Below are positions 21,001 through 59,072 of a DNA stretch of 64,000 bases, one piece after another; position 1 is the stretch's first letter; each line of letters begins with the position of its first letter. The DNA is from Yuukianura sp. NJ FZ-2021. Lineage: Eukaryota. The notes beneath the pieces are model-generated. The model saw only the letters and a program-made list of their open reading frames with translations. It was not told where the DNA came from and did no database searches. Position numbers and translations under genes: made by a program. The stretch lies in contig CM102287.1 of NCBI GenBank assembly GCA_046563655.1, forward strand, positions 8,618,001-8,682,000, in the 5' to 3' direction.

Positions 21001-22704
21001 ATTTTTCCCATAGACCAACATTTCAAGACGGTAGAGTACGCGTGAATCCTCGGCAAGCCAAATATATCCAAAAGTTGAATTTCAGCTGAATTTTTCAAAA
21101 TTCCAATTCCTCAAAAAGTAAGTGTAGAAGTGAATTTTTAAAAATTTGGTCACGTCAAAAAGTTAGAAAACAGGTCAATTTTTCCCATAGACCAACATTT
21201 CAAGACGGTAGAGTACGCGTGAATCCTCGGCAAGCCAAATATATCCAAAAGTTGAATTTCAGCTGAATTTTTCAAAATTCCAATTCCTCAAATTTTCCGC
21301 ATGTTTCTTATAACAACGTCTCGATTTTCCGCAATCTTTTTATAACAACGCCTCCGTTCTGTGCAAGAAAAAAGCTTGCAGAAAATGTTCGTCCCTATTT
21401 TCTGCAAGGAATTTTTGCTTGTGTTTTTTAAAAAAATCTTGCAGCAAATCGTATTGAAAAGCAGTCGATCTCCCCTCATAAATTCCACGTTCCATAGTGT
21501 GAAAACTGAAAAGTGAAAATGAGCTTCAAACGCGTTTGAGCCAAAAAGTGAAAAAAACAGTTTTTGAATGGAAAGGTCCCCCTTCCATTCATTTTCAAAG
21601 AGTCCAAAAAAAATTCTGCGAAAAACGATTGGAAATGTCTTAAAACGTCCTAAAAAATAACAAGAAAAGAAATGTTTTTTCGAGAAAAAATTGTCAAAAA
21701 AATGTTTCAAAAAATGCTGAAAATATCGGCGATTGGAAGAACGAGAGCGGAGCAAAAGTGCCTTGCTATGGCTTGGAATCTCAACAAGCCCAACAGTTAG
21801 AGAGAAGCAGCAAGACAAGTGACGACGACAACTTTACCTGGTGGAGGAAGTTAACGTTGAACAATGGGCACTTGACAAGACAGCTTCAAGTGCCTCAAGT
21901 TGTTCAAACCAAAGGAGAAAGTTGTCGTCCCTTAATTATTCACTTCAACGGCTCAATCCTCCTGCAAGTTCCTAGTGAACTGCTGGATTTACGGAAAAAT
22001 AGATTAAGCTATCCAAACAGTTTAAAAAAATAATCAAAAAGTTAACTCACGCGTCTGATTGGATGATGATCCCGGAGCGGAGTCTTCGTCCCCTGGATCG
22101 CATCAGTCGACTGATCGTCGGCTGACGGTTGATGATGATGCTGCGGGGGTAATTTGCGTAGTGGAGTTCTGCTATTTGCAAAAACGAGTTGACGCTGATG
22201 TCTCTGCGGTGATAATGGTTCGTAGTACTGGTCTTCAAAGAATGGTGGGCCACAGTCACAGTCATCAATATCCTGGTAATCACTATTAGCTGCCGAAGAG
22301 TCTTCTACTTGACTACTGTTCCCAGTGGGTGGCAAGTATCTCTTCTGCAGACAGTACTTTATTTCATCTCCATTTTGAAAATGAGCTTGGTACTCCAAGT
22401 ACTTTGGTCTGGGATGTCCTCCTCCATCACTCTGCTCAAACTGACCACTGACTGCCGTTGTCGTCGTCGTGAAAGTCTCTTTTCCAAAATGAGAGAGTCG
22501 TAAATGACGAATCGCTTGAAGGAGTTCAATCTTCTCATGAATGTCTCGGACTCCGATTATTTCCAGATCAGATTCTCCCATCTCAGCACAAATCCGTAGA
22601 TCTTCATATCCATTTTGTACAAAAGGCTCAAAGTGGTGAGAGAGATCAAGTGAGTGGAGCCATTCAAACAGTTCTCTTTGTTTCACCAATTGACGACTCA
22701 TCAT
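3015..22704 (-). CDS. SAM-domain scaffold protein, SAMD5/SASH1 family (Drosophila SKIP-like); 3' part not found in the window
   Basis: Phase-consistent GT-AG exon chain: 22704-22051 (MMSRQLVKQRELFEWLHSLDLSHHFEPFVQNGYEDLRICAEMGESDLEIIGV..., a SAMD5-type SAM), 13159-12143, 11187-11096, 8810-8605, 4734-4445, 3538-3476, 3071-3015 (LKYEELQKRKARIAQEHQM). All junctions keep the frame open. No stop is reached, so the gene continues toward or past position 1. Confidence 0.8.
15386..15726 (+). mobile_element. tRNA-derived SINE or Pol III transcript-like element (intronic, antisense to host gene)
   Basis: A-box-like TAGCCGAACGG (~15398). T-arm/B-box GCAGG-TTCGATT-CCTGT (15439-15455). No proper acceptor stem. 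Ends in an A-rich tail and a T6 run (15721-15726). Confidence 0.5.
18719..21480. mobile_element. Non-autonomous TIR DNA transposon (IS3EU-like termini) carrying an internal tandem array
   Basis: Imperfect ~116-bp terminal inverted repeats at 18719-18834 and 21364-21480, starting TATGAGGGGAGATCGACTGCTTTTCAA. Flanked by a 6-bp direct repeat AATTCC (18713-18718 and 21481-21486). No transposase ORF. Confidence 0.85.
18835..21292. repeat. Tandem array, 176/177-bp unit, about 14 near-identical copies
   Basis: Units start at 18835, 19011, 19188, 19364, 19541, 19717, 19894, 20070, 20246, 20423, 20599, 20775, 20952 and 21128 (last one truncated). I see only three variable positions. Confidence 0.97.
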
Positions 22705-23391
22705 TTTCAAAAGCTGGACTGGAGGGTGACAGTGGTGGTCTTAAATAAAAAAAAGTTAAAAAGAACAAATGAGTATTGTACAGTTAATCCTTCCAGAGAT
22801 CACCAAGTTCATCAAAACTGCATCTCTCATCATCTTCAAACTGCAGGGAGCGTCACTAAAGTTAAGTTGACACAAAGATAAACACGTTATTTGTTTTCAA
22901 CGCCTCCCTCATCTTTCCATTCATCACATTTGCATTTCCTTGTTTTCTTAGCACTTCCAAGTACCAAATGACATTCACTCTCACGCACACTTGAACCACT
23001 AGTGTCAAAAGTGCATGATGTCCAAGTACTTACTAAAACTCTCACCAATGTCGTGTTTAGGAACTTGAAATGATGAAATGAATTCTTGGTGACGAAACTT
23101 TTTTCAACTTCTGTTCAAATGTTCCTTGTTCTGGAACAAAAACCAAGCTGTGTCACGAAATGTCGTCAGACGGAACACTTTTCATAGGCCGGAGAATCCT
23201 CTTCTGCGGAGAGACACCAGATGCAGTAGTGGTTGACAAAACTTTGTTTTAAATGAGCTAAAAAGTCTGTTGCCGGCGTTTCAAGGGCTCCCCTCTCAGG
23301 TCAATCTCCACACTTCCGACTTCTTTGGAACCTTCCAAAGGACTGAACTTTTCCCTCCGTCGTCTCTTCTTTTCACAATGAAATTCTCCCT

Positions 23392-28949: not shown

Positions 28950-31900
28950 ATGAAGAAGGTAAATTTTTACGCCTCTCCAAACAGCAGAATATTACAGTTT
29001 TCTATCATGGAAGTCAGAAAATCAAAAAAAAAATGCAAACAAAATTATTACAGAAAGTGGAAAATTTGCATGAAAAAAAAATCATTACAGAAAATCGAAA
29101 ATTTGCATGAAAAAAAAATCATTACAGAAAATCGAAAATTTGTACAAAAAAAAAATTAAAAAAAGGAAGTTTAGGAAATAACTAGCGTAAAATTTATTTT
29201 CCAAAAACTTTTCAAAAAAAAATTAGCAGTCTTGGATATTTAGCAACTTTCGATTTTACCGTAATAAAATAATACAACACGCCAAAAAGGTTTCTTCTTT
29301 TGAGAAGACTTTTGCATGCAACATTGCATTTTTGCAACAACTCTTCATAAATCTGCAGTAAACTGAAAACTCATAACGATGTTTGCAAGAAAATCGAAAG
29401 TTAATTGAACGTGACCACAGTTTCTAAACAACTCGTTCCCAAATGTCAAGGCCAAAAGCAAAAACTCCCACTGAACTTGCTCATTCTTACAAAATTATTA
29501 TTCAAATCTTCATAATAAATTATTATAAACTAACTAATTTGCTAAAAATTTTACGTTTCAGGGATCCGTACACCTACTACTGCTCGGAATATTCCTGGCA
29601 GTATCCATCAGCACATTAAATGCCGAACCTCCGCCTCCGAATTACAACTACAACCACTACGACGCGAGTCCAATGCACCACAACACTTTAGAGCATGACG
29701 AGTACGTTTCACAGCTTACGTATATTCCAGTATTGTAATCTCATGACCTTTGACCTCTTAATAATTTTCTTGACCTCTAGCGGTCAGCATGACCAGATTC
29801 ACGTCCAGGCAGAACATGACCACAGTCCTATAACAGGAGACGACTACGGCTTCAACGACCTTCACCCCAGCAATCCAAATCCATACAAAGGCCAAGGTCA
29901 AAGCTACACAAACTCCTACAGTCCACCGCCGACCAATCCAAACAACGTTTTCGGTTCTCCAAGCACAAACTACGGTATGACGGACCCCATGACGGGACTC
30001 CCAATGGAAATGGAACCGGCACTTCCAACGACTCGCGTTGTTACTCAACAGGGAATGCCGAACCAAAGACGTCCAGCGCCACAAGGACCAACGGCACAGA
30101 AGAAAACACCAAGCACAAAACCAGGAACGTCGCTGTTCTCCGGACTCCATTCGCCGTTACAAGCAATCAAGGACACGATTTGGCCGAACAAGGGGCGTCC
30201 TCGTCCATCTCCAGGGCCACAAGGAGGCTACAGTTCCCCACCACCACCGCGACCAACTTACGGAGTTCCACCGCCGCCACCGACTAATAACGCACCAAAA
30301 CCACCATCCGAGCCTTCGTACACACCTCCAATGACAATGACTTACGACCCACCAAGACCACAACCGACTTATACTAGCTCACCACAACCACAACCATCAT
30401 ATGTTGCTCCAATGATGAGCTACGATGTACCACGCCCACAACCTTTTAACAGCTGGCCGCAACCTCAACCTCAGCCATCTTATGGTCCACCGCAACCAAC
30501 TCACGAACCACCAATGCCGCAACCCACTTATGGCGCTCCGCAACCTCAACCAAGCTATGGACCTCCGCAACCTACATTTATGCCACCAAACCCAAGTTAT
30601 GGTCCACCGCAGCCAACAATGGGCACCCCACGACCTAGCTATGGCCCCCCACAACCTACATTTATGCCGCCAAACCCAAGTTATGGTCCACCGCAGCCAA
30701 CAATGGGCACCCCACGACCTAGCTATGGCCCGCCACAACCTACATTTATGCCGCCAAACCCAAGTTATGGTCCACCGCAGCCAACAATGGGCACTCCACG
30801 ACCTACTATGGCCCGCCACAACCTACATTTATGCCGCCAAACCCAAGTTATGGTCCACCCCAGCCAACAATGGGCACCCCACAACCTACAATGCTGCCGC
30901 CAAACCCAAGTTATGGTCCACCCCAGCCAACAATGGGCACTCCACGACCAACACAAGGCTATGGCGCTCCACAGCCAACACCTCAACCTGGACTTCCAAC
31001 CAACCCAGCTGAATGGTCAGCCCAACTAGAAGGGTGGGCTCCAGGTCCAGGCAGCTTCAGCGACAACCCCACCCCAAGCAAAGGTTCCCCACCACCCACA
31101 CCCCCAATCCTAACATTTGTCCCCATGAACATGCAACCAGCTAGTCCCTCTGGTGGCAATCCCGGCCAAAATACTCAACCTTCCGGCCCCACCATGATTC
31201 TGCCGTCCATCCCTCCATACACTGGAGCTCCAGCTATGACAGCCTACGAGGCCCCACCGATCTCTCGAATCCCCAACACCGGAGCAGGATACACTGGAGC
31301 CCCAGCTATGATGGCAGTCTACGACTCCCCACCAACGCCACGAATCGAAATGTCACCCCCGCCCCCTCAAAACACACCACCAAAGCCAATAGATATTATG
31401 GAAGTCCCACCCGCCCCACAAAACACACCCCCAAACCCTACAAATTATATGGAAGCCCCACGTAACCCATTCCCCAACGAACAACAATTTCTTCCTAACC
31501 CACAACAACAGCGCCATACTTTCCCAGTCAACAAAGGACAATCATTCACCTTCTCCTTCCGAAAGCCCCACCCACGAGGACCACCACACACTAAAATTAC
31601 GCTCAATTACAAAGGTTGATTAATCACAATTAATAATTACTTAATTACTCAATTACTTTCAACAATTAACATTCCCTTACTCTGTAGGTTACATGCCCCC
31701 ACCAGGAGTTCAACATAGTCCATCCAGCAAAGACGACTATGGCTACACTCCTACTTCCTACGACGGCGCAGGATTGGCCACTTTCGGTAAATACAAAAAC
31801 TACAGCCAAAAGTTCCAAAAAATGAAAAATCCTCCAAAAACTAACTTTTTTAAACTTTTTAGAATACGATCGCCGAAACTTTTTGAATCAAATGTTCCCC

Positions 31901-31972
31901 ACACCATCGCAACAACCAGGAACAAGCTACGGAGGTGGAAAACCAAATCGAAGGAAACACACTAGCTCATGA
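28950..31972 (+). CDS. Secreted proline-rich repeat protein (cuticle/extensin-like YGPP/YGAP repeats) with a 1-bp frameshift at ~30805
   Basis: Exons 28950-28958 (MKK), 29562-29701 (signal peptide GSVHLLLLGIFLAVSISTLNA), 29781-31614, 31688-31786, 31863-31972. 84-bp repeats encode PSYGPPQPTFMPPNPSYGPPQPTMGTPR. AATAAA at ~32187. Confidence 0.85.
29047..29157. repeat. 37-bp tandem repeat x3 in intron 1 of the Pro-rich gene
   Basis: attacagaaaatcgaaaatttgcatgaaaaaaaaatc (with minor variants) at 29047, 29084 and 29121. Confidence 0.85.
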
Positions 31973-32440
31973 GTCATGACCTTGTTGACCTTCATTTCTA
32001 AGTCACTTCTTGTCCAAAACAGCCTGAAATTTTTGTTTTCTGAAATTTTTTGGCACTTTTACACTATTTCCCCACTTATAACATTGCGATCTTACCCGCT
32101 AAGTTATTGTCTACTAAATTGCACCCCATCCTTCATTGTTTTTACTGTTAACTAAATGTCTATGGTTAATCAATACAACTGTGTTCAATAAAATGCACAA
32201 AATTTACTAAAAATGAAATTTCTCGTTGCCATGGACAACCGTCCTGTTCAAAATTCCTGGCCTACAAACAAACAAGTCCGAAACTAAAATTTCGCAATTC
32301 TTCCCAATCAGCACTTTTCGGATTTTCATAAGCAGTCCCCGGATTTCACAAAACCATTTGACCTTGACCTGAGTACCAAATTGGAACACGAGTTTCCAGC
32401 ATCAATCAATTTTTGTAATTTTTAATAAAACCTGCTCAAA

Positions 32441-34726
32441 ATGTATCTCCACAAGACGGAATCAACTTATGGACGTGTCGTTCCAAAACCAGAGGCTGAG
32501 GGAAAACCAAAGGAAGAAGCAATTGACGATACTCCGGTTCCCATTCAAGACCAAATTGAAAATTTGCGAACCAAAATCAATCTCAAAGGTAACTCAAACC
32601 ACAATTTACAAAACAACTATAAAAAAAGAAAAGGAATTTTTAAATTTCGAGAAATTCTTTTGAAATTTTAACTTTTTAGAACGCTACAACAAGGTCATCA
32701 GCGAAGAGCTTGAAGAGTCACGTCAAGGAGCTTCCAGCATCCTCTTTGACCTTTACAATGAAACGAGAGACCTGCGCTCACGGCTCATCGATGCGCTCAA
32801 TGCTGAGAAAGCGGCTGTTCAAAATGCGCTTCGAACACATCGCTTATTTCAACTGGCCATGACAGACAGATCAGCCTCCGTAAATTCAATTTCAATTCAA
32901 AAATTAAACAATTCACAAATTCCTCAAATTCGGGAATCTTTTTACTTTGAAGGTGGCAATTCCCTGGCTCCAAGATATTCTATTCGATGCTTGCAAAAAA
33001 TTCAATTCTCTCCTCTGCTACTTGGCTGCCAAGCGCAAAAAACTGGAAGAAGCGGAGTCCATGGTGGTCATGATTGAAAAATGGCCACGACCAGGCACAC
33101 TCCCGTGGGAACTGGAAGCCATCATTGAATTCATTCGAATTGAAAACCGAATTGAATCGGTCAAGGGTAAACTCAAAATTTCAAAAAATATTATCAAATT
33201 TTCAAAATTGTACCAATTTTTACAACTTTTTCAAAAATTTAAACCTTTTCTAGTCAAATTGGAAACAGCGACAATTCTTCATTCGAAATACTACGAAATC
33301 AAATTCATTCTTCGTGAAGAAGGTGGAAAATACTTGCCAACACTCAAAATTCTGGAAAATCAAGTTGACAATCATCGCAAAGAATTGGCCGGTCTCAAAA
33401 AAATGCTGGTCGAAGCATACAAGGTGAAAACCATAACCTAACAAATTTCTAAACATAACACAAAAAAATAGCCTAACTTAACCAAACCAACTTATCATTC
33501 TCAACTTTGCAAAAATTATAAGCGTTCTGATTGGTCGATTTTTAGTTTCTGGAAGATGCCAAACGGAATCAAGCTCTTACTGAGCGAGAAGCCTACGATA
33601 ATCGTAAGGAGCGCCGTCGTCAAATGGGCAAAATGAAAAAGGCTGTGGACAAACTACTGGCTGAAAACGCCAGTCCAATGCCGAACAAACGTCTTAACCG
33701 TGAAACTTTGAGCAACTTCGACTGGATTACTGGAAGTGAACAAGAAGTTGTCGTTACGGAGGAAATGCTTAAAGCCAAGACCGACAAAATTGAAATTTTT
33801 CAAGAACGAGCTCGCCGTCTGGTCGATTCCATGCGCGTTACAGACTTGACGCAGATTCCTATTCGGTAAAAACAAGTACATTCGAAATTCAAAATCATTC
33901 TTTCAAAACAAAAGTTAAGTTTGTTCCAATTTTTAGATTGAAAACTGTTCGAGCCTTGGGTGAGCACTTGGTAGCCGAGTTGGAAAGTAAAGAAAAGTTG
34001 AAAGAGGTTCTGCTCAAGCAAAAGGCACAACTCTACTTGATTCAATGTCACTTCCGCTACACTGGACAAAAACAAGAAGAAGCGTAAAACATTTTCCATT
34101 TCTCCAAAAAAAAATTGGACTTTCCAAATTTTGACTTTTCAAGGTCATTGAATTTTGCCATATTTTTTTTTCGTTTTCCAGTTTCTTGAATTCCCTTGCC
34201 GAGTCTGAAGCAAGTCGAGTTGACCTTGAGAAGCAAATCAAGGCCGTCAAAGACAAACTGAACTACTACGGCAACATTACGATTCAAATGCGACTTGCAG
34301 TCTTCGGAATCACACAATTTCTGGACGAAGGGAAGAAAAAGCGCGGTAAAGGAATTGAGCAAGACCTTCGAACGCAACTTCGTCACCTTCAAGCCAAATT
34401 CGCCATTTTGATCAAAAAAGTTAATCAACTCGAAAGCCTGTTCGCTGGAAAAGAAGCTGAACGTGACTACACTTCACTTCTCAAACCGCCGCCAGTTCCA
34501 GCACGACTCGTTCGTGTCGGTTCGCCAGTCGTGTCTGACGATTCTGACGGTAAGCAACACCTTAACATAACAATACCACTAATTTCCCCACAACTTAACG
34601 TTAACCTTTGACCTTGTTTTTTAAGATGACGAAATCTTGGACTCAAAAGTTCCTACCCGCCAACAAATCAAAAACAAAGGAAAACGAGTCATCCAACAGG
34701 CAATCCTGCGTCGCGGTCTCAGATAA
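32441..34726 (+). CDS. ODAD3: Outer dynein arm docking complex subunit 3 (CCDC151-like coiled-coil protein)
   Basis: About 8 exons. Coiled-coil sequence IENRIESVKVKLETATILHSKYYEIKFILREEGGKYLPTLKILENQV...KEL...EREAYDNRKERRR and the C-terminus DDEILDSKVPTRQQIKNKGKRVI resemble CCDC151. AATAAA at ~34797. Confidence 0.75.
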
Positions 34727-34881: not shown

Positions 34882-37800
34882 TTAATCAACTGCAAGCAAC
34901 AAAAGAAGCAAAAGATAGGCAAAACAAGCGTAAAGCAATGCAAACATAATCGAACGTTTTGTGGCTTACCTTTGGTAGTTTTTCCTTGCTCAGTGATTTC
35001 GCGCATAGGAATATGCGAAGTCATGCTGCTTTTAGAGCGTAGAAACGCACATACGGTGAACATGAAGGCGAAAATCAAAGTACCGAAGAAGAACAGCATA
35101 AATGAAAAGTCGTCCATTCCGAAGTCTTCAGAAAACACCTGAAATTGACATTGGAAGTTTAAATATTAAAATAGGTTTTGATATTTATAATTTATGTTTT
35201 CGATTTGAAAAACTCACCATAAAGTATCCTGAAACGTCATCGAAAGTATCAAATTCTCCTAGAGCTGCTCGAAAGTGGTAGATGCCAGTTCCATAGACTG
35301 TGAATTTCAGTCCTTCAGCATTGTAGTATCGCTTGCCACGGTGAAGATGTTTGTCGCTGTTGATGTTGTCGAGGTACGAATTTCCTTTGCCTGTTCAAAA
35401 AACAAGGACAAAACTAAATAAAAACATCTCAAAATCGAACTCAATCTCAAAGATGTTCGTCGAAATTTTGAAATACTGTCCTGTTATTGCGTTTACTTGA
35501 TAAGCTGTAGTCCTCTCTTCCATTGACTTCCTCCACCCATACAACCAAGTGCGGTTTTTCCAAAAAGAACAATGGGTGCTGAAATGCAGGTTCCATTACA
35601 GGGGTGTATGTAACTCGAATGGTAAAGGAGTATCCTCGTCGCACTTTGTAAACCTAAAAAAAAACTCCGTGTTTTGTTTAAAAAGTGTTCCAAAAAGTTA
35701 GTTTTTTCCAAAAACTTAATCAAAATCTAAAAATTATAATAGAATACCGTTTCCTTGCAGTCTGTATAGAACGGATGATCGTCGAGCTTGTCTGCAGGAG
35801 TGCATTTACACTCCGCCCGGGTCAATTTGTCTTTACACTTGGAGTAAACACCTTACGAGGAGTAAACTTATATTAAAAAGTTCCGCAGAATTTTAGAACT
35901 GTGGAATCTGTAGAAACAAAAGCGTAAAGACTCACCACCGGAAACTTTGGATACTTTGTAGGTCGTCTTGTACATAGGTTTGGATGGATCAGAGTTATAC
36001 ACATTAGTAGAAATTGGAATGTTGACACCGTGGATGCTTGGAGGACGATAATTCACCTGGTAAAATATCAATTTTAGAAAGTTTTAGAAAAAAAAAATAG
36101 TTCCATTTTTTTTAATTCTGATTGAATTGGAAATGCTCTTACTGGAATTCCCACGTAAATTGGAACGTTATTTTTGTAGACACGCCCGTCTGCATGAGGA
36201 TTCAATATCTCTTTGGCTGGAATTTTTATCCTGCCGGCAAATTCAGAATAAAAAAAATTCTCGTTTTTGGACTTCTGAATTTCAAACTTTTTATCAAAAC
36301 AAGAACAGAACTTACGGATAATGAATTGTTAGACGTTGACCTTCCGCTCGCATCACTTGAAATATAAATGTGAGAGAACATGGCGTTTTGCAATTAGGCA
36401 GACAAGACAGTGCCCTGAAAAAGATATACAAAATTATCACAATTACAAAAAATAAAATAACTTTATTTTATAAAGCATACTGAACCTGACCAAACGTACC
36501 TTACAACAACGCTTGACTGTCCAATTGAATAACCTGAGTTCATACACTTTTTAATACATACACATATATGTATATCTTTACTGAAGTAAAGTTTATAAAA
36601 GCATTTTTACGAACTTACCAGTCGGCTTAACAGTTATTTCAATGCTTTGCGACGTCAACACTTTACGCAATGTTTGTTGAAGAGAAAGGACAGTCGGATT
36701 GGAGTTTGTCACCTTGAGTCTCACTTGTTGCATCATGACTTCCCCCTCTACAAAGTAAAACCAAATCAAATGTATATGAAATTAGAACAATGTTTTGTTT
36801 TAAGAGAGATTTACGTGGTAGAATAGCAGTGAGGGTGACGGTAAATGAAAGGGAATCATGGAGATTGAGAGCAATAACGCCTCCGCTTGATTTCAAAACT
36901 GGATTTGGTTGCAGAAGCAGTTCGAATAAACAATCCGACGGGTGCGTGTACCACGATGGAAGACTCGGATACCAGTCTTCGTCAGGCACATCAATTCGTT
37001 CCGATAGGTCACCAGGCAGTTTCTCCTCCAGATATTGCACAGACGCCATGTTAATGAAAAATCCCTCGTAACGAGCCAGGTCAATTTGCAGTTGACGGTC
37101 CACTTTGGCAGTTGCTACAATTCAGCATATTTCATAATTGTCGAAATTGGTACATAATCATAATCAAATCTTCTCATAAAGTTTACCTTTTCCGAAAAGA
37201 ATATCTTTCGCGTAGCGGTTACGTTGAACTGGGGGCTTTTGATCTGGTAGTGTAAACGTTTCCGGAAGTGTTAATAGTATGCTGAAGTGTCCAGGGATAT
37301 AGAATGTCCAGCCTACATAATGCGAAATTACGTCCTTGGTCCATGTGCTGCAAGCGGTTTCATTTGAATCTGAAAGAAAAACAGATGATTGTAGTAAGTT
37401 GTAACGAGAGTGGTTTAGAGTGAAACAGCAGGAACCTATGTCAGTTTTGTCGATGTAGATAAAGGCATCATTTGTTCTCGCATTTACGCTAACCTGCATC
37501 AACCAATATAACAAAGAATCCGAAACTACGAGAAGATTATTTTACAATTTTAAAATATTAGTAGTGACACACTTACGTGGGTAAAACAAGAGAAAGCATG
37601 CATTGGAATACTCTTGACTACATAGGCGAAAGCGACAGCAGAAAATGCTTCTAGCCAACTCGAATCCAAGAATTTGATATGCCGAATGTACAACTCACAA
37701 GTTGGTTCCGGTTGCTTCCCTGGTATTGTCCTCAAGCCTGTTTTTAAAAAAAATTGGACTTATACATTAGTAGTAGAGTAGAAAAAAAAATTTGAAGCTA

Positions 37801-40800
37801 AAGTTTTACAGCGGATTGTGTTTCCGACGTCCGTCCTCGCAAAGCCAATTTTATGTTCCATTTTGGCCTCATATATCACCTAGTACAAAGAAAAATATCA
37901 CAAAAACGTTAAACGTCAAAATGTAAGAATATTCTAATATTCATGACTAATCGTAACTTTACCACAGTGATTCCGTCAATAAGAAACGGACAGAGGCTCG
38001 GTCGAACGTCCTGAGCTACATACATGAAAAAAAAAGTTGAAGAACGTTTCTCCGTTAGTTAAAACCAAAATTGTATATCTTACATTGAAAAGGCAGAAAT
38101 AGTTCAGGCTTGATGTTAATCAGCGTCATTCGTGCTGGTATGGCAGCATGGGCTAAAAGCTTACTTTCAAAAACAGCTCGAAAAATATTAATTTGGGAAG
38201 CAAGCATTTTGTTGGCAAGATCAAAGATTTTTTGCTCAGTTAAATATATCAGCTCATCGTCCGAGTCCGAGTCTGCAATGTAAAGAGCATCTTCATACGT
38301 TTTCACTGTTACATTTTCCGGTAGCAGGGAATGTTGGTTCTTCATTCCACCTTCCATGTACCAAATTTGAATGTTTCCTTGATTACTAACGCGATAGAAT
38401 ATGCCTCTGGAAGCAAAAATTAAAGGTTTACAAATTAGATTACCACTATAAAAAATAAATTGGAGAAAACAATTTACAACCATTTCTTACTTCATTGCTT
38501 TTAGCAGTATTGGTCGAGCCAAGAACTCAAAAGTGCGGCCTTGTACGGACGTATAGACCGGTTGGATGAATCTATGTTGTAAAAAAACTGATTGTTTTTG
38601 GTAATTGATAGGGACAATGCTAGCAAAAGTTAACAGTTAAACTATACCTGGATATTTTGCTATCAAATCTTGAACTGGGAGGAACAAACCAGCCTTCTTC
38701 AATCGCCACTTCACGAACCTCCGGAAAATCATCGATGTGAACTTCATGTGCTCTGTAGTATGCTGAAACTTTCCCAACGAGCAGTCTACCAAAAAAATAA
38801 ATTAATTAATTACTAAAATAAATGTTCATGTCTACTGTATATTACATCACAAGAGAAATAGTTTAGACTTGCTTTGTATGATCGATGTTAACACAAATAT
38901 AGTAGCGATCCGGATGATTGAAGTTACAGTACTCAATTTCCTAAGAAAAGCAAAATTGCTTAGTTTTCGATTGCGAGTCATTAATTGATAGTTGTATGAA
39001 AAGACTTACCGAACTCAAGTATCCTACGGAAAGATACACAAATCGTCCACCAGATTCTGCAATCCAAATTTGATTTCCAACAAAATGAATATCCAAGGAC
39101 CCAATGGAGACTTCGATCTTTCGAAATTCAAAGTCGCTTGGAAAAACTTTTGGAAGAAATCCATCCCCAAGTTCGGTTGTTAAGATTTCGTAGTGATTAG
39201 GCTTGTCAGTCTCAGTTTTCTTTGGCATTGGTACAACGAAACGAACATACCAACGTATGTCTGAAGTGTAGGCTTCCAATGGCTGAGGAGGATTTCCCAC
39301 TTTGGCTACAAAGTCAAACTGATTCAGTTGATAGTTGTAGTAGGCTGATGAGAGTTCATGTATCAAGTCCTTGTCAAACATGGTTGCACCCTTGATGAGG
39401 AGAACCCACTCGGTATAAGGTTGTTCCGCATAGAGAACCGTCCAAGCAACTGGATTGCTCAAAAAATTGTCTGGACTGATCGTGTCATGGCTTATGACTA
39501 TAATGACGATGTCACGAACATAAGGTCTTTGCTGAATGTAACACGTCGGTAAATGATGAAGCTTGAAGGAGTGAATTAGAGGGTTGATTCCAAACGGCTA
39601 CAATAAAATAAAGAGAGTTTTTAGACATAATACGGTAGTAACGAGTGTAGAATGGGGAATAAGAATTCAGTCTCACCGTGAAGCAGTAGAACATGTCCCG
39701 TACGTTAGAGCACGGGTCAATTAGATGAAATGACAACAAAGGGAGGTCTGAGTAATCCGCAAATTGCAGTGGAGCAGAGGTCATGGGCTCGGACACGAAA
39801 ATACCGCGATTTGACACAGCGAGGATATGAGCATTTGTAAGTAGCAGGCTTTCGATGGTAGCACAATCTGAGTCGAGTTGAAAGTATTGGAAAGAAAAAA
39901 AATAAATGTAATTAGTGATAAAAGATATAAAACTGGTTAGCGACTAAACTAACCGTGAGGATACGACAAGCAAAATGCTCTGGTCATGTCAATCCAGTCA
40001 GGTCCAACATTGTTCATTGCTATTGGAATGGAGAGATACACGTTCGTCAGTGGACCCCATCGGGCCAGACTGCTATATTCTTGACGTTGTTGAACAATCA
40101 GGTAAAATGCGAACAAATCCCTGGCACAGCTTTGTAAAACGAACAAAGTCAGCAATCCATTAACAAGTTGTACTCCAGGGAGTACTAAGATGATGAAATG
40201 ATAATGGCTAAAAGTTGAAACTTCTTACCCGTTTTCCAGCATTTTGATATCATGCGGAGAAACTTCATGGTAGGTGTGGTTGAATTCGTCGGGTGGAGGT
40301 GGGTAAGCTGGACGTAAACTCATTGAAACGTTAAGAATATCTTCCCATGACTTCCAGAAGTCATCCGAATAGCGCCACCGGGCGAGAGGACAGGTAGAAT
40401 ACTCCACAACACTGAGTTGACGTTTCAGATATCCAGTGCCCGCAGGATACTCCACAAGAATGTCGTAACTAATAGAAGGAAGGATTTCGACAATATATTA
40501 TCAATCATAAGCTGATACAACCCTTTATAAAGTTAAATGTTCCAACTTACATTGGATTTTGAAGGTTCGACTCGTAGGATAGACGGTACAGGGTATGAAA
40601 TGATATGACATCGTTAGGACGAGCTGTAAACAGTATGGTGAGACTGAATGTCGTGTTCCGTAAAGTCGCTCCGGGTATAACTCCAGTTGAGTTGAGAAAC
40701 TTCCAGTAATATTCCTTGCGCAATGCCTGCTCCGTAACGTTCGTAATCGAACTGTCGTAGTACAACAAGTGAGCGTTCGTGACTCCTTCACTCGTATGTA

Positions 40801-41134
40801 TAAATGCATACTCGGAAAGCATAATCTGCCGTTTGGATAGCGGAGTGTAAGGGTCATACTCACGAGCGCTTGTGAACCTGAAACGACCAACAAACAATGT
40901 TTCCGTAAAATGCCACACAACCTTGAGTACGCTTACTAGTTACATTACACGTCTATAGTCCCAAGAGATCGTATAGTAGTATGTTACGTACATGTAGACG
41001 TCAGGAGCATTGTACTGGATTGCTGCCTTGTTCAACTTTTGGCCTTCACCATATTCCGTTCCAGCGATAAACAGTATCCAAATGAACATGAATGCTCTGT
41101 ACGAGTATCTGTCGAGTGATGGAAATCCCTTCAT
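34882..41134 (-). CDS. CATSPERB: CatSper channel auxiliary subunit beta-like (large secreted ectodomain plus C-terminal TM)
   Basis: N-terminal signal peptide (MKGFPSLDRYSYRAFMFIWILFIAG) and more than 20 short exons. The spliced C-terminal region VNYRPPSIHGVNIPISTNVYNSDPSKP...SKVSGGVYSKCKDKLTRAECKCTPADK...TDCKE...VEEVNGR...YNAEGLKFTVYGTGIYHFRA followed by a TM matches the order of recalled CATSPERB motifs (VNYRPPS, DPSKP, C-x4-TRxECxC, EVN, YNPSGL, FHFR). Internal exon boundaries are not all resolved. Confidence 0.8.
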
Positions 41135-41282
41135 TTCTCGTCAGTGCTGCAAAACAACCGGTAGCTTCTTGAAGGTGGAACGATTGGCAAGCAAACCAAG
41201 TCGTTGTCCTGCTGGAGTGGAGCTGGAGGAAGAGGAGAGAAGATCGACGACAACACTGGACAACAAAGGGCAGCAAATGACA

Positions 41283-41328
41283 ATGATGATGATGGGAAGA
41301 TATGATGATGATGATGATGATGATGATG
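41283..41328. repeat. (GAT)n microsatellite upstream of the CATSPERB-like start
   Basis: atgatgatgatgggaagatatgatgatgatgatgatgatgatgatg. Confidence 0.85.
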
Positions 41329-42308
41329 GTAAGACGCTGAGATGAAGACACGGCTAAATCGGTGGATTAATCGATTAACAACGGAGAACGGACTAACAAA
41401 CACTTGGGGACTCGACTGGGGAGATTTTTTGCCTTTCCTTTGTTTTTTCTTTGTCGCCTGTTTCGCTCTACTGAATTCAATTTACGCGCTTGCGTAAAAA
41501 CTTTGTCTTTATGTGTTCACGCATGACAAACAGACTGCAAGCGTATCAGGACTTTCAGGACACAAAACGCAAGTACGTTTTAAAAACGTTTACTGCGATT
41601 ATCGCAGTCCCATGTACTTAGAATCAAAAAACGTTTTACAATTTACCTGAATGCAGAAGGGGGAAACGTTTTTGTAGATGCGCCGAAAGAGAAAAAACGT
41701 TCTTATTGGTACTTTGCGGAAGAGAAAAAAACGTTTTTGTCGGCTGTAAAAACGATTTCGTTCCCACCGCACGTTTGGGGCGGGAATCCTGTTAAGTACA
41801 AAACGTCGTAATCGTAACGCTCCCTAAACGTAATGTTACTAAAGTTGATTCACAAAAATTCGTCCTTTACGTCTACTAATAAATAACGCCCGTCTACTAA
41901 AGTCGTTTTGGATGTCGAAGCTTATTTCTGGAAGACATTTCCTTCGGCACTCTTTATTTAAAAGCACAAAAATTGATTTAGCAGAACCAATCAATCAACA
42001 ATATAATGCGCGAGAAACATTAACACTTTAAAAGATGGACAATTTGCATGTGTTTTCAATTTACAACGAACATTTTTTCAATCCCTTAGTATCGGAATTT
42101 CGGTAAAGATCTACTACTCAGTACTAGTAACTTACAGTAATCTAATCAATAGAGAACAAATCAAAGGAAAGGTAAGTTAAGCGTAATGAAGTAGTACTCG
42201 GGCCATTTAGCGTCAGCCGAAGCCGCAGTATCAATTGGTTGGTAACTGTTTAACTGTTAGCCATGTTGATGGAAGTAGGATCCGTGTCGGGATTTCTACT
42301 ATTTATGG

Positions 42309-45305
<2,997 letters not shown>

Positions 45306-57376: not shown

Positions 57377-59072
57377 ATGGCAGTTAACACACTTCTACTA
57401 GACTTTCGTCTTCCACACAAACACACCCAGTGTCTACAAGGTAACTAATTCAGTATAACTTAACATAGCAAAACTATCTTAAACATGATAGATTAATGAA
57501 TAGTTGTCACATTTTATACCTAACCTGTATTAGTTAATTGTAATTAACTAATTTTTACTGCTGTACTTTTTTGAATGCATTACCTTTAACTTCAAGTTTT
57601 TGAATTTTAACAGAAATTGAAGCAATAGTTTTGGAAGGATTTGAGCAATTTGCAGAATTTGGGCAGAATTCAATTCAGCGAATTTTTAGTGACGCTGAAT
57701 CGCTGTCACTTTTTAAAGGACCGAAAGAATCGCTGATTACCGTGAAACTGTACCGGGAGAGGTCATTGGTCACAGTGACCGTTGAATATTACCTGGCAAC
57801 TGAACAGGAACCACTGTTAACATATACGGTAAAGTTCCAATTCCAAATTTTGTTTTTGTTTTTTTGAAATTTGAAAAAGATTTTTGAACTTTCGTTTTTT
57901 AGGATTGTTGCACACTCGAAAAGCAATGGAGTTCTGCAACCGGAGAATCAAAACCCGCTAAGACTCTGCCACGCGTCTTTCGTGGAGGAGCGCTGGATGT
58001 TTACGTTTGTACAACAGGTAATTCTGAATTTTTTTTAAAAATTTTGACATAAAATTTTATGAAATATTGAAATTTTTGAATTTTGTAGATGGACGCCTAC
58101 TGGAGTATGACATAGAAGAAACTTGTTTAGACGTTCAATCGAAGTATCAGCATGTTCAAATTTTCAAAACGAAATCTTTTGGGAAAATGTTGGTCCTAGA
58201 TGACGATCCAAGTAAATTCAAAATTTTGACAATTATTTTTTTCCAAAATTTGAAAATTCAGTTTTCCACGAATTCCGGCGTATTTTTCAACTAGATTTGG
58301 CCGAATCAGATTCCATTTACACCGAAGCGTTGATGCGACACGGAATAGAAAATTACGAAAATTCGGAAATTTTGATTCTTGGTGGCGGAGACGGCGCGTT
58401 ACTGGCTGCATTGCTACAAGAAAATCCTAAAAAAGTTACCATGCTTGAGGTAAAATTTGAAAATTTGAGTTTTTCGAAAAAATTTGACCTCACGTGACCT
58501 TTGCCATTTTGGTTTCAGATTGACGAAACTGTGATGGACGCTTGTAGAAAGCATCTTCGCTCAGTTTGTGGATCGGTGCTGGACCAACTGAAAGGTCCAA
58601 ATTATGAGGTCAGTAGCAAAAAATTCAAATTCAAATTCAAAAATTTTGGAAAATATGGATGTCAAAGGTCAAATATTTTGATTTCCAGATTATCATATGT
58701 GATTGTCTTCCTGTTATGACTGAAATGCTACAACGTGGTGTTCAGTTTGACTTTGTTTTTGGTGACCTCACGACAATTCCAGTAACACCGAACGGAACGG
58801 TCAACGACACTTATTCATTTGTCTCCGAAGTTTTGGAAATCGGTTTCAAGCTTTTACGTCCAACTGGAAAGTTCATGACTCACAGCGCAGGCAGTTCCGG
58901 ACCAGAATCGGCTGAAATGCTTGAAAGTCTGCTCAAATCCAAAGGTCAACGAGGTCACCAAGGTCATTCCGTCGAAATTTCCAAGAAAATGGAATTTGTT
59001 CCTTCCTTTAGCGAATACTGGGCATTCTATGCCGTAAGTTTTACGGATCAAGTGCAACCACCTTCAGGTTGA
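57377..59072 (+). CDS. SMS: Spermine synthase
   Basis: Multi-exon. Contains MAVNTLLLDF, DGRLLEYDI, SKYQHVQI...LVLDDDPNLAESD, ILILGGGDGALL, VTMLEIDE.VM.AC, FGDLT and FVPSFSEYW.F. Confidence 0.95.

Follow-up and report, generated by a model that had tools for sequence, protein, structure and literature searches.

Within the window, by which is meant the whole stretch of 64,000 nucleotides that was analysed, the CATSPERB gene occupies the minus strand and runs from an ATG at 41134 to a TAA that ends at 34882. Six-frame reading combined with the picking of splice junctions yields a model of 25 exons and a coding sequence of 4,248 nt, which translates into 1,415 amino acids and whose terminal stop is the only one. 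These are the limits between which the original prediction had placed an intact multi-exon gene of roughly 1,400 codons, and no frame-disrupting stop was met in any of the 25 exons. The 24 introns measure 67-114 nt (median 83.5), 23 of them being of the GT-AG type and one of the GC-AG type, and all junctions are ab initio predictions. An alternative donor for intron 1 at 40943 and a candidate further intron within exon 14 (Table 1) set the plausible length of the protein at 1,393-1,431 residues. An in-frame stop is located 7 nt upstream of the ATG, no X-box-like motif was recognised upstream of the gene with a pattern of our own, and a (CAT)n microsatellite occupies positions 41280-41330, approximately 150-200 nt upstream of the ATG.

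The gene is real and looks intact. Its GC content is 43.6% in the coding sequence versus 28.3% in the introns, and, when read in its other two frames, the spliced coding sequence contains 59 and 77 stops. According to a simple consensus score devised for this analysis, the chosen donor/acceptor pair is the best among the in-frame alternatives for 23 of the 24 introns, the exception being intron 20, where the acceptor used retains a cysteine that aligns with the protein CAL8116875.1 of the springtail Orchesella dallaii. The scores are weak at introns 14, 20 and 21 and, together with the single GC donor and the ab initio nature of the junctions, they would fit a recently decaying or mis-modelled gene, in which part of the open frame came from the choice of junctions and the real product was truncated. 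Such decay or mis-modelling is very unlikely in view of the tight sizing of the introns, the register kept with the Orchesella protein over 23 of the 25 exons and the density of stops in the other frames.

Several other features surround the gene. Upstream of it, a C2-domain gene, which we take to be a copine, occupies the minus strand with two C2 exons at 44299-45194 and with similar tandem C-terminal exons at 42309-42479 and 42720-43007, an arrangement that suggests alternative last exons. A multi-exon gene at 32664-34725 (plus strand), coiled-coil-like by eye and with no significant Pfam match, converges on CATSPERB; the stops of both genes are approximately 160 nt apart and their 3' UTRs may overlap. 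The window also contains long ORFs rich in Pro, Gln and Thr that include tandemly repeated units (29692-31619, plus), a segment with 52% GC (30001-32000) versus approximately 37% elsewhere, a SAM-domain exon (22042-22740, minus) and an exon at 58617-59072 (plus) that has no Pfam match and presumably resembles spermine synthase.

Table 1. Features of the CATSPERB locus (window positions) and partner loci elsewhere in the genome
Feature	Position	Strand	Remarks
CATSPERB exons 1-5	41134-40992, 40877-40551, 40468-40229, 40129-39954, 39867-39677	minus	
CATSPERB exons 6-10	39597-39010, 38940-38873, 38785-38648, 38571-38491, 38406-38084	minus	
CATSPERB exons 11-15	38015-37963, 37879-37810, 37737-37577, 37493-37187, 37114-36815	minus	
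CATSPERB exons 16-20	36747-36619, 36533-36500, 36414-36316, 36230-36143, 36056-35936	minus	
CATSPERB exons 21-25	35851-35748, 35653-35497, 35390-35218, 35138-34970, 34889-34882	minus	
Intron 7	38786..38872	minus	sole GC-AG intron, 87 nt
Candidate further intron within exon 14	37435-37370	minus	in frame, 66 nt; acceptor strong, donor weak; Orchesella protein shorter at this place
Putative signal peptide, aa 1 to ~29	41048..41134	minus	hydrophobic core aa 14-24; hydropathy only
N-terminal domain region, exons 2-3, aa ~60-200	40229..40877	minus	matched to mouse beta 67-179 via Orchesella protein
Beta-propeller region, exons 4-8, aa ~240-620	38648..40129	minus	own profile match aa 295-461; Orchesella counterpart with PF21548
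Expected head-domain region, exons 9 to mid-15, aa ~624-1030	36900..38571	minus	aligns with Orchesella
Ig-like domain region, aa ~1030-1140	36316..36900	minus	own two-sequence profile, weak match aa 1033-1110; inside 36%-identity Orchesella alignment
CATSPERB C-terminal (stem) domain PF15149, exons 20-23	35218..36056	minus	profile positions 37-78, 80-118, 132-163, 178-217 in order
Single TM helix, aa ~1368-1390	35040..35108	minus	followed by ~25-aa cytosolic tail; hydropathy
CATSPER1	C2:9.107 Mb		Asp pore motif, open channel core
CATSPER2, two in tandem	C3:10.424 and 10.427 Mb		Asp pore motif, open channel cores
CATSPER3	C4:14.952 Mb		Asp pore motif split by intron, open channel core
CATSPER4	C8:14.212 Mb		Asp pore motif; S1-S6 within one open frame
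Gamma	C5:10.309 Mb		PF22846, 29.4-32.4 bits (cut-off 27.6); TM exon downstream
Theta/TMEM249	C5:6.043 Mb		two exons, PF15158 positions 1-93 and 97-136, 24.4 and 15.6 bits (cut-off 25, whole protein)
SLC9C	C2:7.355 Mb		NHE + voltage-sensor + CNBD parts
sAC (ADCY10)	C4:10.155 Mb		tested exon matches sAC structures only

With regard to its layout, the predicted protein would consist of a signal peptide, a large ectodomain, one C-terminal transmembrane helix and a short tail, an arrangement that on hydropathy matches that of CATSPERB. The leader and the helix, both of which had been anticipated, are its two most hydrophobic stretches. Since 14 further single exons (2-6, 8, 10, 13-16, 18, 19 and 24) have no CatSper family match in Pfam, the assignment of the N-terminal domain is indirect. 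The Orchesella protein itself matches PF21541 (CATSPERB_1st) at 24.9 bits, under the cut-off, and PF21548 (CATSPERB_2nd) at 27.6 bits. Profile searches did not detect the head domain PF22830 either in the model or in CAL8116875.1, and the region of the Ig-like domain PF22831 is seen weakly, at residues 1033-1110. In all likelihood, the protein is a type I membrane glycoprotein in which the leader is followed by an N-terminal domain, a propeller, an enlarged middle that would correspond to the head, an Ig-like domain, the stem, the transmembrane helix and the short tail.

To judge from its sequence, the protein is CatSper-beta. The family profile PF15149 (CATSPERB_C) matches 4 of 14 ORF pieces in profile order (E-values 2.5e-13, 6.6e-7, 0.13 and 4.2e-4), while gamma, delta and epsilon families have no Pfam match among the same pieces; on single exons it reaches 50.4 and 29.4 bits, above the curated cut-off of 27. 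The beta-specific motifs that the original prediction had noticed towards the C-terminus are all present and in order, in exons 20-23. A search of the 98.7 Mb of the genome, in 22 contigs, found matches to PF15149 at this locus only, which sets a lower bound on their number. Exon 20 finds beta chains alone in the PDB, namely 7eeb_E and 9ubw_E, and matches 71 cluster representatives, 29 of which were looked up: 17 are named as CatSper-beta or as its C-terminal domain, the other 12 are unnamed, hypothetical or PKD-named, and none bears the name of another subunit. Beyond approximately residue 990 towards the N-terminus, among 72 proteins compared, many of them fragments, the only one aligned is that of O. 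dallaii, and a word-based homolog search with exon 6 passed none of 204 candidates, while a search of the Atlas with the same exon yielded nothing usable.

The proposed comparison of an AlphaFold model with mouse beta was carried out on the Orchesella counterpart (residues 32-1000, which exclude the stem), and it agreed with the beta identity for the propeller and failed to fold the middle region. The AlphaFold2 model matches the same two beta chains best (7eeb_E and 9ubw_E, with an E-value of 2.7e-14), and the chains 7eeb_F and 7eeb_H, which we take to be gamma and epsilon, rank below them. This ranking comes from a model with a mean pLDDT of 47.6, usable around the propeller only and below pLDDT 50 at residues 613-969, and built from an input alignment that included beta homologs.

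The closest known relative is the O. dallaii protein already mentioned (1,546 aa), named in UniRef as a CatSper subunit beta C-terminal domain-containing protein. It aligns with residues 94-990 at 26% identity (E 2e-68) and with residues 1010-1403 at 36%, collinearly over the exons kept in register, and it has the same succession of leader, ectodomain and transmembrane helix. The protein described here is 131 residues shorter, its approximately 90 N-terminal residues cannot be aligned, and it lacks an insert of approximately 100 residues that precedes the Ig-like domain in Orchesella. Mouse CATSPERB (1,109 aa) shares the stem motifs, the predicted topology and, via Orchesella, four anchors in the same order, whereas it is approximately 305 residues shorter and has a head domain that is unrecognisable by profile here. 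Other betas are similar in length to that of mouse, with 1,108 residues in Nematostella and 1,096-1,147 in Latimeria.

As for where the extra length sits, Orchesella-to-mouse anchors were chained through the BLAST alignment, three of the anchor blocks being individually non-significant but collinear. The resulting offsets relative to mouse beta are +31 at residue 98, +58 at 282, +107 at 509, +105 at 548 and +304 at 1174, a pattern that an independent MAFFT alignment with Latimeria reproduces. Approximately 30 of the extra residues are thus N-terminal and approximately 200 lie between propeller and stem (aa 548-1174), so that about two thirds of the excess falls in the stretch where the head domain is expected. 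An additional N-terminal ectodomain, as first suggested, does not agree with this distribution, in which only those 30 residues or so precede the first domain. We consider it highly probable, from the alignments, that the extra 300 residues or so represent internal expansions common to Orchesella, with no new N-terminal domain. The betas of the non-animal eukaryotes Chromosphaera, Polyrhizophydium, Diphylleia, Hondaea and Rozella likewise have a PF15149 stem and are also long (1,261-1,384 aa), and those of the first three carry an N-terminal PKD domain, which was unseen in the animal betas scanned. A PKD or other extra N-terminal domain was rejected for the present protein, as it is absent both from CAL8116875.1 and from exons 2-3.

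The similar length class of the fungal and protist betas would be compatible with a horizontal acquisition of the gene from a fungus or a protist, and so would its long branch and the weak support of the animal clade. In a FastTree phylogeny (24 sequences, 390 columns), the model groups with Orchesella and two unnamed sequences on a long stem with a support of 1.0, support for the animal clade is only 0.60, and Limulus falls outside the springtail-like clade. Against such an acquisition, the N-terminal PKD domain of the three long non-animal betas is missing here and in Orchesella, and an IQ-TREE run that ended before a tree was drawn separated six non-animal from four arthropod rows at 98/95, 26 ungrouped rows being uncounted in this split. 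Moreover, further arthropods outside the winged insects show the same retention: NCBI already names a Limulus beta (XP_022243644.1), and the source data behind Fig. 3 of PMC12638846, in the part consulted and read by column position, list beta entries for Folsomia, Orchesella cincta, Campodea, the two barnacles Amphibalanus and Pollicipes, and Limulus. A whole set of CatSper-related genes, described below, is present in the genome as well. Horizontal acquisition is accordingly the least probable of the alternatives weighed here, its chance being close to negligible, and vertical descent is likely from the sequences compared, albeit not proven by the tree.

The original prediction also held that the lineage retains a CatSper complex, and the genome indeed contains CATSPER1-4, gamma, theta, SLC9C and sAC (Table 1). 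The pore subunits were picked out of 131 Ion_trans matches as single-repeat channels with a selectivity filter of the CatSper kind. When only single-repeat chains of the PDB are considered, the fragments of CATSPER1, 2 and 4 each match the expected subunit best, although four-repeat Cav/Nav chains outscore it in total; the CATSPER3 piece matches CatSper3 only. The channel cores of CATSPER1, of both CATSPER2 copies and of CATSPER3 splice without stops, in a procedure that selects stop-free junctions and with some weak scores. The two CATSPER2 paralogs (C3:10.424-10.428 Mb) are 85% identical over the pore exon. A second SLC9C-like locus, at C2:23 kb, was seen over its voltage-sensor exons only. 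Not every search recovered its target: a pore pattern for CATSPER3 gave 10 matches versus 7 in the control and the gene was found instead among the Ion_trans matches, and sAC surfaced only among weak PF00211 matches, having been missed by a sequence pattern (12 matches versus 12 in the control) and by an AAA_16 search, two loci of which presumably encode Cdc6 and a NACHT-type protein. Among the partners suggested for a search, delta and epsilon gave no match in Pfam searches of the genome. A search for ARMH2, a member of the cytosolic subcomplex, was blank as well, and all of these are weak negatives from searches that had no positive control. The co-occurrence of pore and regulator genes indicates that the channel is retained and that beta is no orphan; a repurposed, orphan subunit is ruled out by the presence of CATSPER1-4.

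Some other loci of the genome deserve mention in their own right. Channel pore exons with identical translations, which we assume to be ryanodine-receptor-like, occur 530 kb apart at C4:8.012 and 8.542 Mb and would reflect a recent duplicate or one of the assembly. At C3:2.549 Mb, a long intronless ORF on the minus strand, presumably related to the riboflavin-pathway deaminase/reductase RibD, adjoins a gene on the opposite strand that resembles two-pore channels, and is a possible case of horizontal transfer. Finally, a multi-repeat Nav/Cav-like gene at C4:3.19 Mb has unusual pore-loop sequences.

One candidate CatSper channel locus turned out to be Shal/Kv4, and a Shal exon bears on the identity of the host, which had been put down as a likely arthropod. 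Among the 120 matches listed of 1,459, it shows 92-94% identity to the best insects, 87-90% to crustaceans and 85-89% to the best myriapods and chelicerates, the top-scoring match being that of a mollusc with 81% identity. This comparison narrows the host to hexapod-like Pancrustacea. Shal alone cannot separate a springtail from an insect, because no springtail Shal is present among those 120 matches. The attribution to springtails, which is probable, draws instead on the collinearity with the Orchesella protein, on the tree and on the pattern of retention already known. Overall, the gene is very probably a vertically inherited CATSPERB ortholog, found at one locus, of a non-insect hexapod that is probably a springtail.

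The retention of CatSper in springtails is already known, both in print and in databases, so that the surprise implied at the outset was overstated and the find is a sound but fairly ordinary one. CatSper has been called absent from the protostomes sampled, yet the sections consulted of the same paper mention a springtail CatSper4-like EST (PMC2572835), and those of PMC13674862 include Orchesella cincta among the CatSper-bearing species. In the source data of PMC12638846, the 64 winged-insect rows in the part examined and both Bombyx rows are blank. The same table has no CATSPER2 entry in the rows seen for its two springtails, in contrast to the two tandem genes found here, and these blanks are probably a matter of orthogroup assignment. 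No study devoted to the structure or function of springtail CatSper was found, with subscription papers and bioRxiv supplements being places that could hold one. The residual novelty thus lies in the internal expansion common to Orchesella and in a hypothesised link to the activation of stored sperm.

The role of beta can be approached through the mouse, in which, according to the portion consulted of PMC13484710, beta touches both delta and gamma within the canopy outside the cell; when beta, or the interface that it shares with delta, is lost, the entire channel disappears together with the current and with hyperactivation. Along the flagellum, CatSper units are arranged in zigzag rows (PMC9205950, as far as consulted), and SLC9C and sAC, proposed as activators, co-occur with CatSper across animals in the parts seen of PMC6660944, whose supplement text, in the portion consulted, contains no arthropod names. 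By analogy with mouse, beta would pair with delta and gamma into the canopy, which would have to form first for the CATSPER1-4 pore to assemble and reach the flagellar membrane; alkalinisation driven by SLC9C and cAMP made by sAC would then open the channel, and the entry of Ca2+ would start or reshape the flagellar beat. We therefore infer, from this analogy, that beta may act here as the canopy scaffold of a pH/cAMP-gated flagellar Ca2+ channel, whose likely job in a springtail would be the activation of coiled, stored sperm in the female.

A different possibility is that the complex has been kept but serves chiefly, or additionally, in places other than sperm such as sensory cilia, where beta would be a canopy scaffold. 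Folsomia candida is largely parthenogenetic, which would suit such a role, and beta homologs occur in non-animal eukaryotes as well. This springtail still has beta and pore entries in the part consulted of PMC12638846. The presence here of the sperm regulators SLC9C and sAC, in the pattern described in PMC6660944, and the sperm phenotype of mouse mutants (PMC13484710) argue for sperm instead, and a non-sperm role is improbable, if less so than decay or horizontal acquisition.

Returning to a function in sperm, an activation via ions through preferential membrane sites has been suggested for some collembolans with coiled sperm (PMC3765205, in the part consulted, citing Dallai et al. 2003), and a connection of CatSper with these sites is put forward as a hypothesis. 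In its most specific form, which is speculative and on balance doubtful, springtail beta would have gained 300-440 residues over the mouse and sea-anemone betas, mostly in the outward-facing middle (head), giving rise to a canopy module particular to springtails and able to sense cues from the spermatheca; the 'preferential sites' through which ions were proposed to activate coiled sperm would then be arrays of CatSper assembled on this module.

With respect to the family, the present analysis contributes a beta model over its full length and an almost complete inventory of CatSper, SLC9C and sAC genes for a hexapod, and it corrects the placement of the extra length of beta. It also reinforces the view that arthropods did not lose the channel as a group and that its loss took place either in the line leading to the winged insects or among them. 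Since springtails are amenable to culture, the link between CatSper and the activation of stored coiled sperm can be put to the test. If true, it would assign a molecule to an ultrastructural observation of long standing, and it would provide an arthropod system in which CatSper is tractable and which has two CATSPER2 paralogs.
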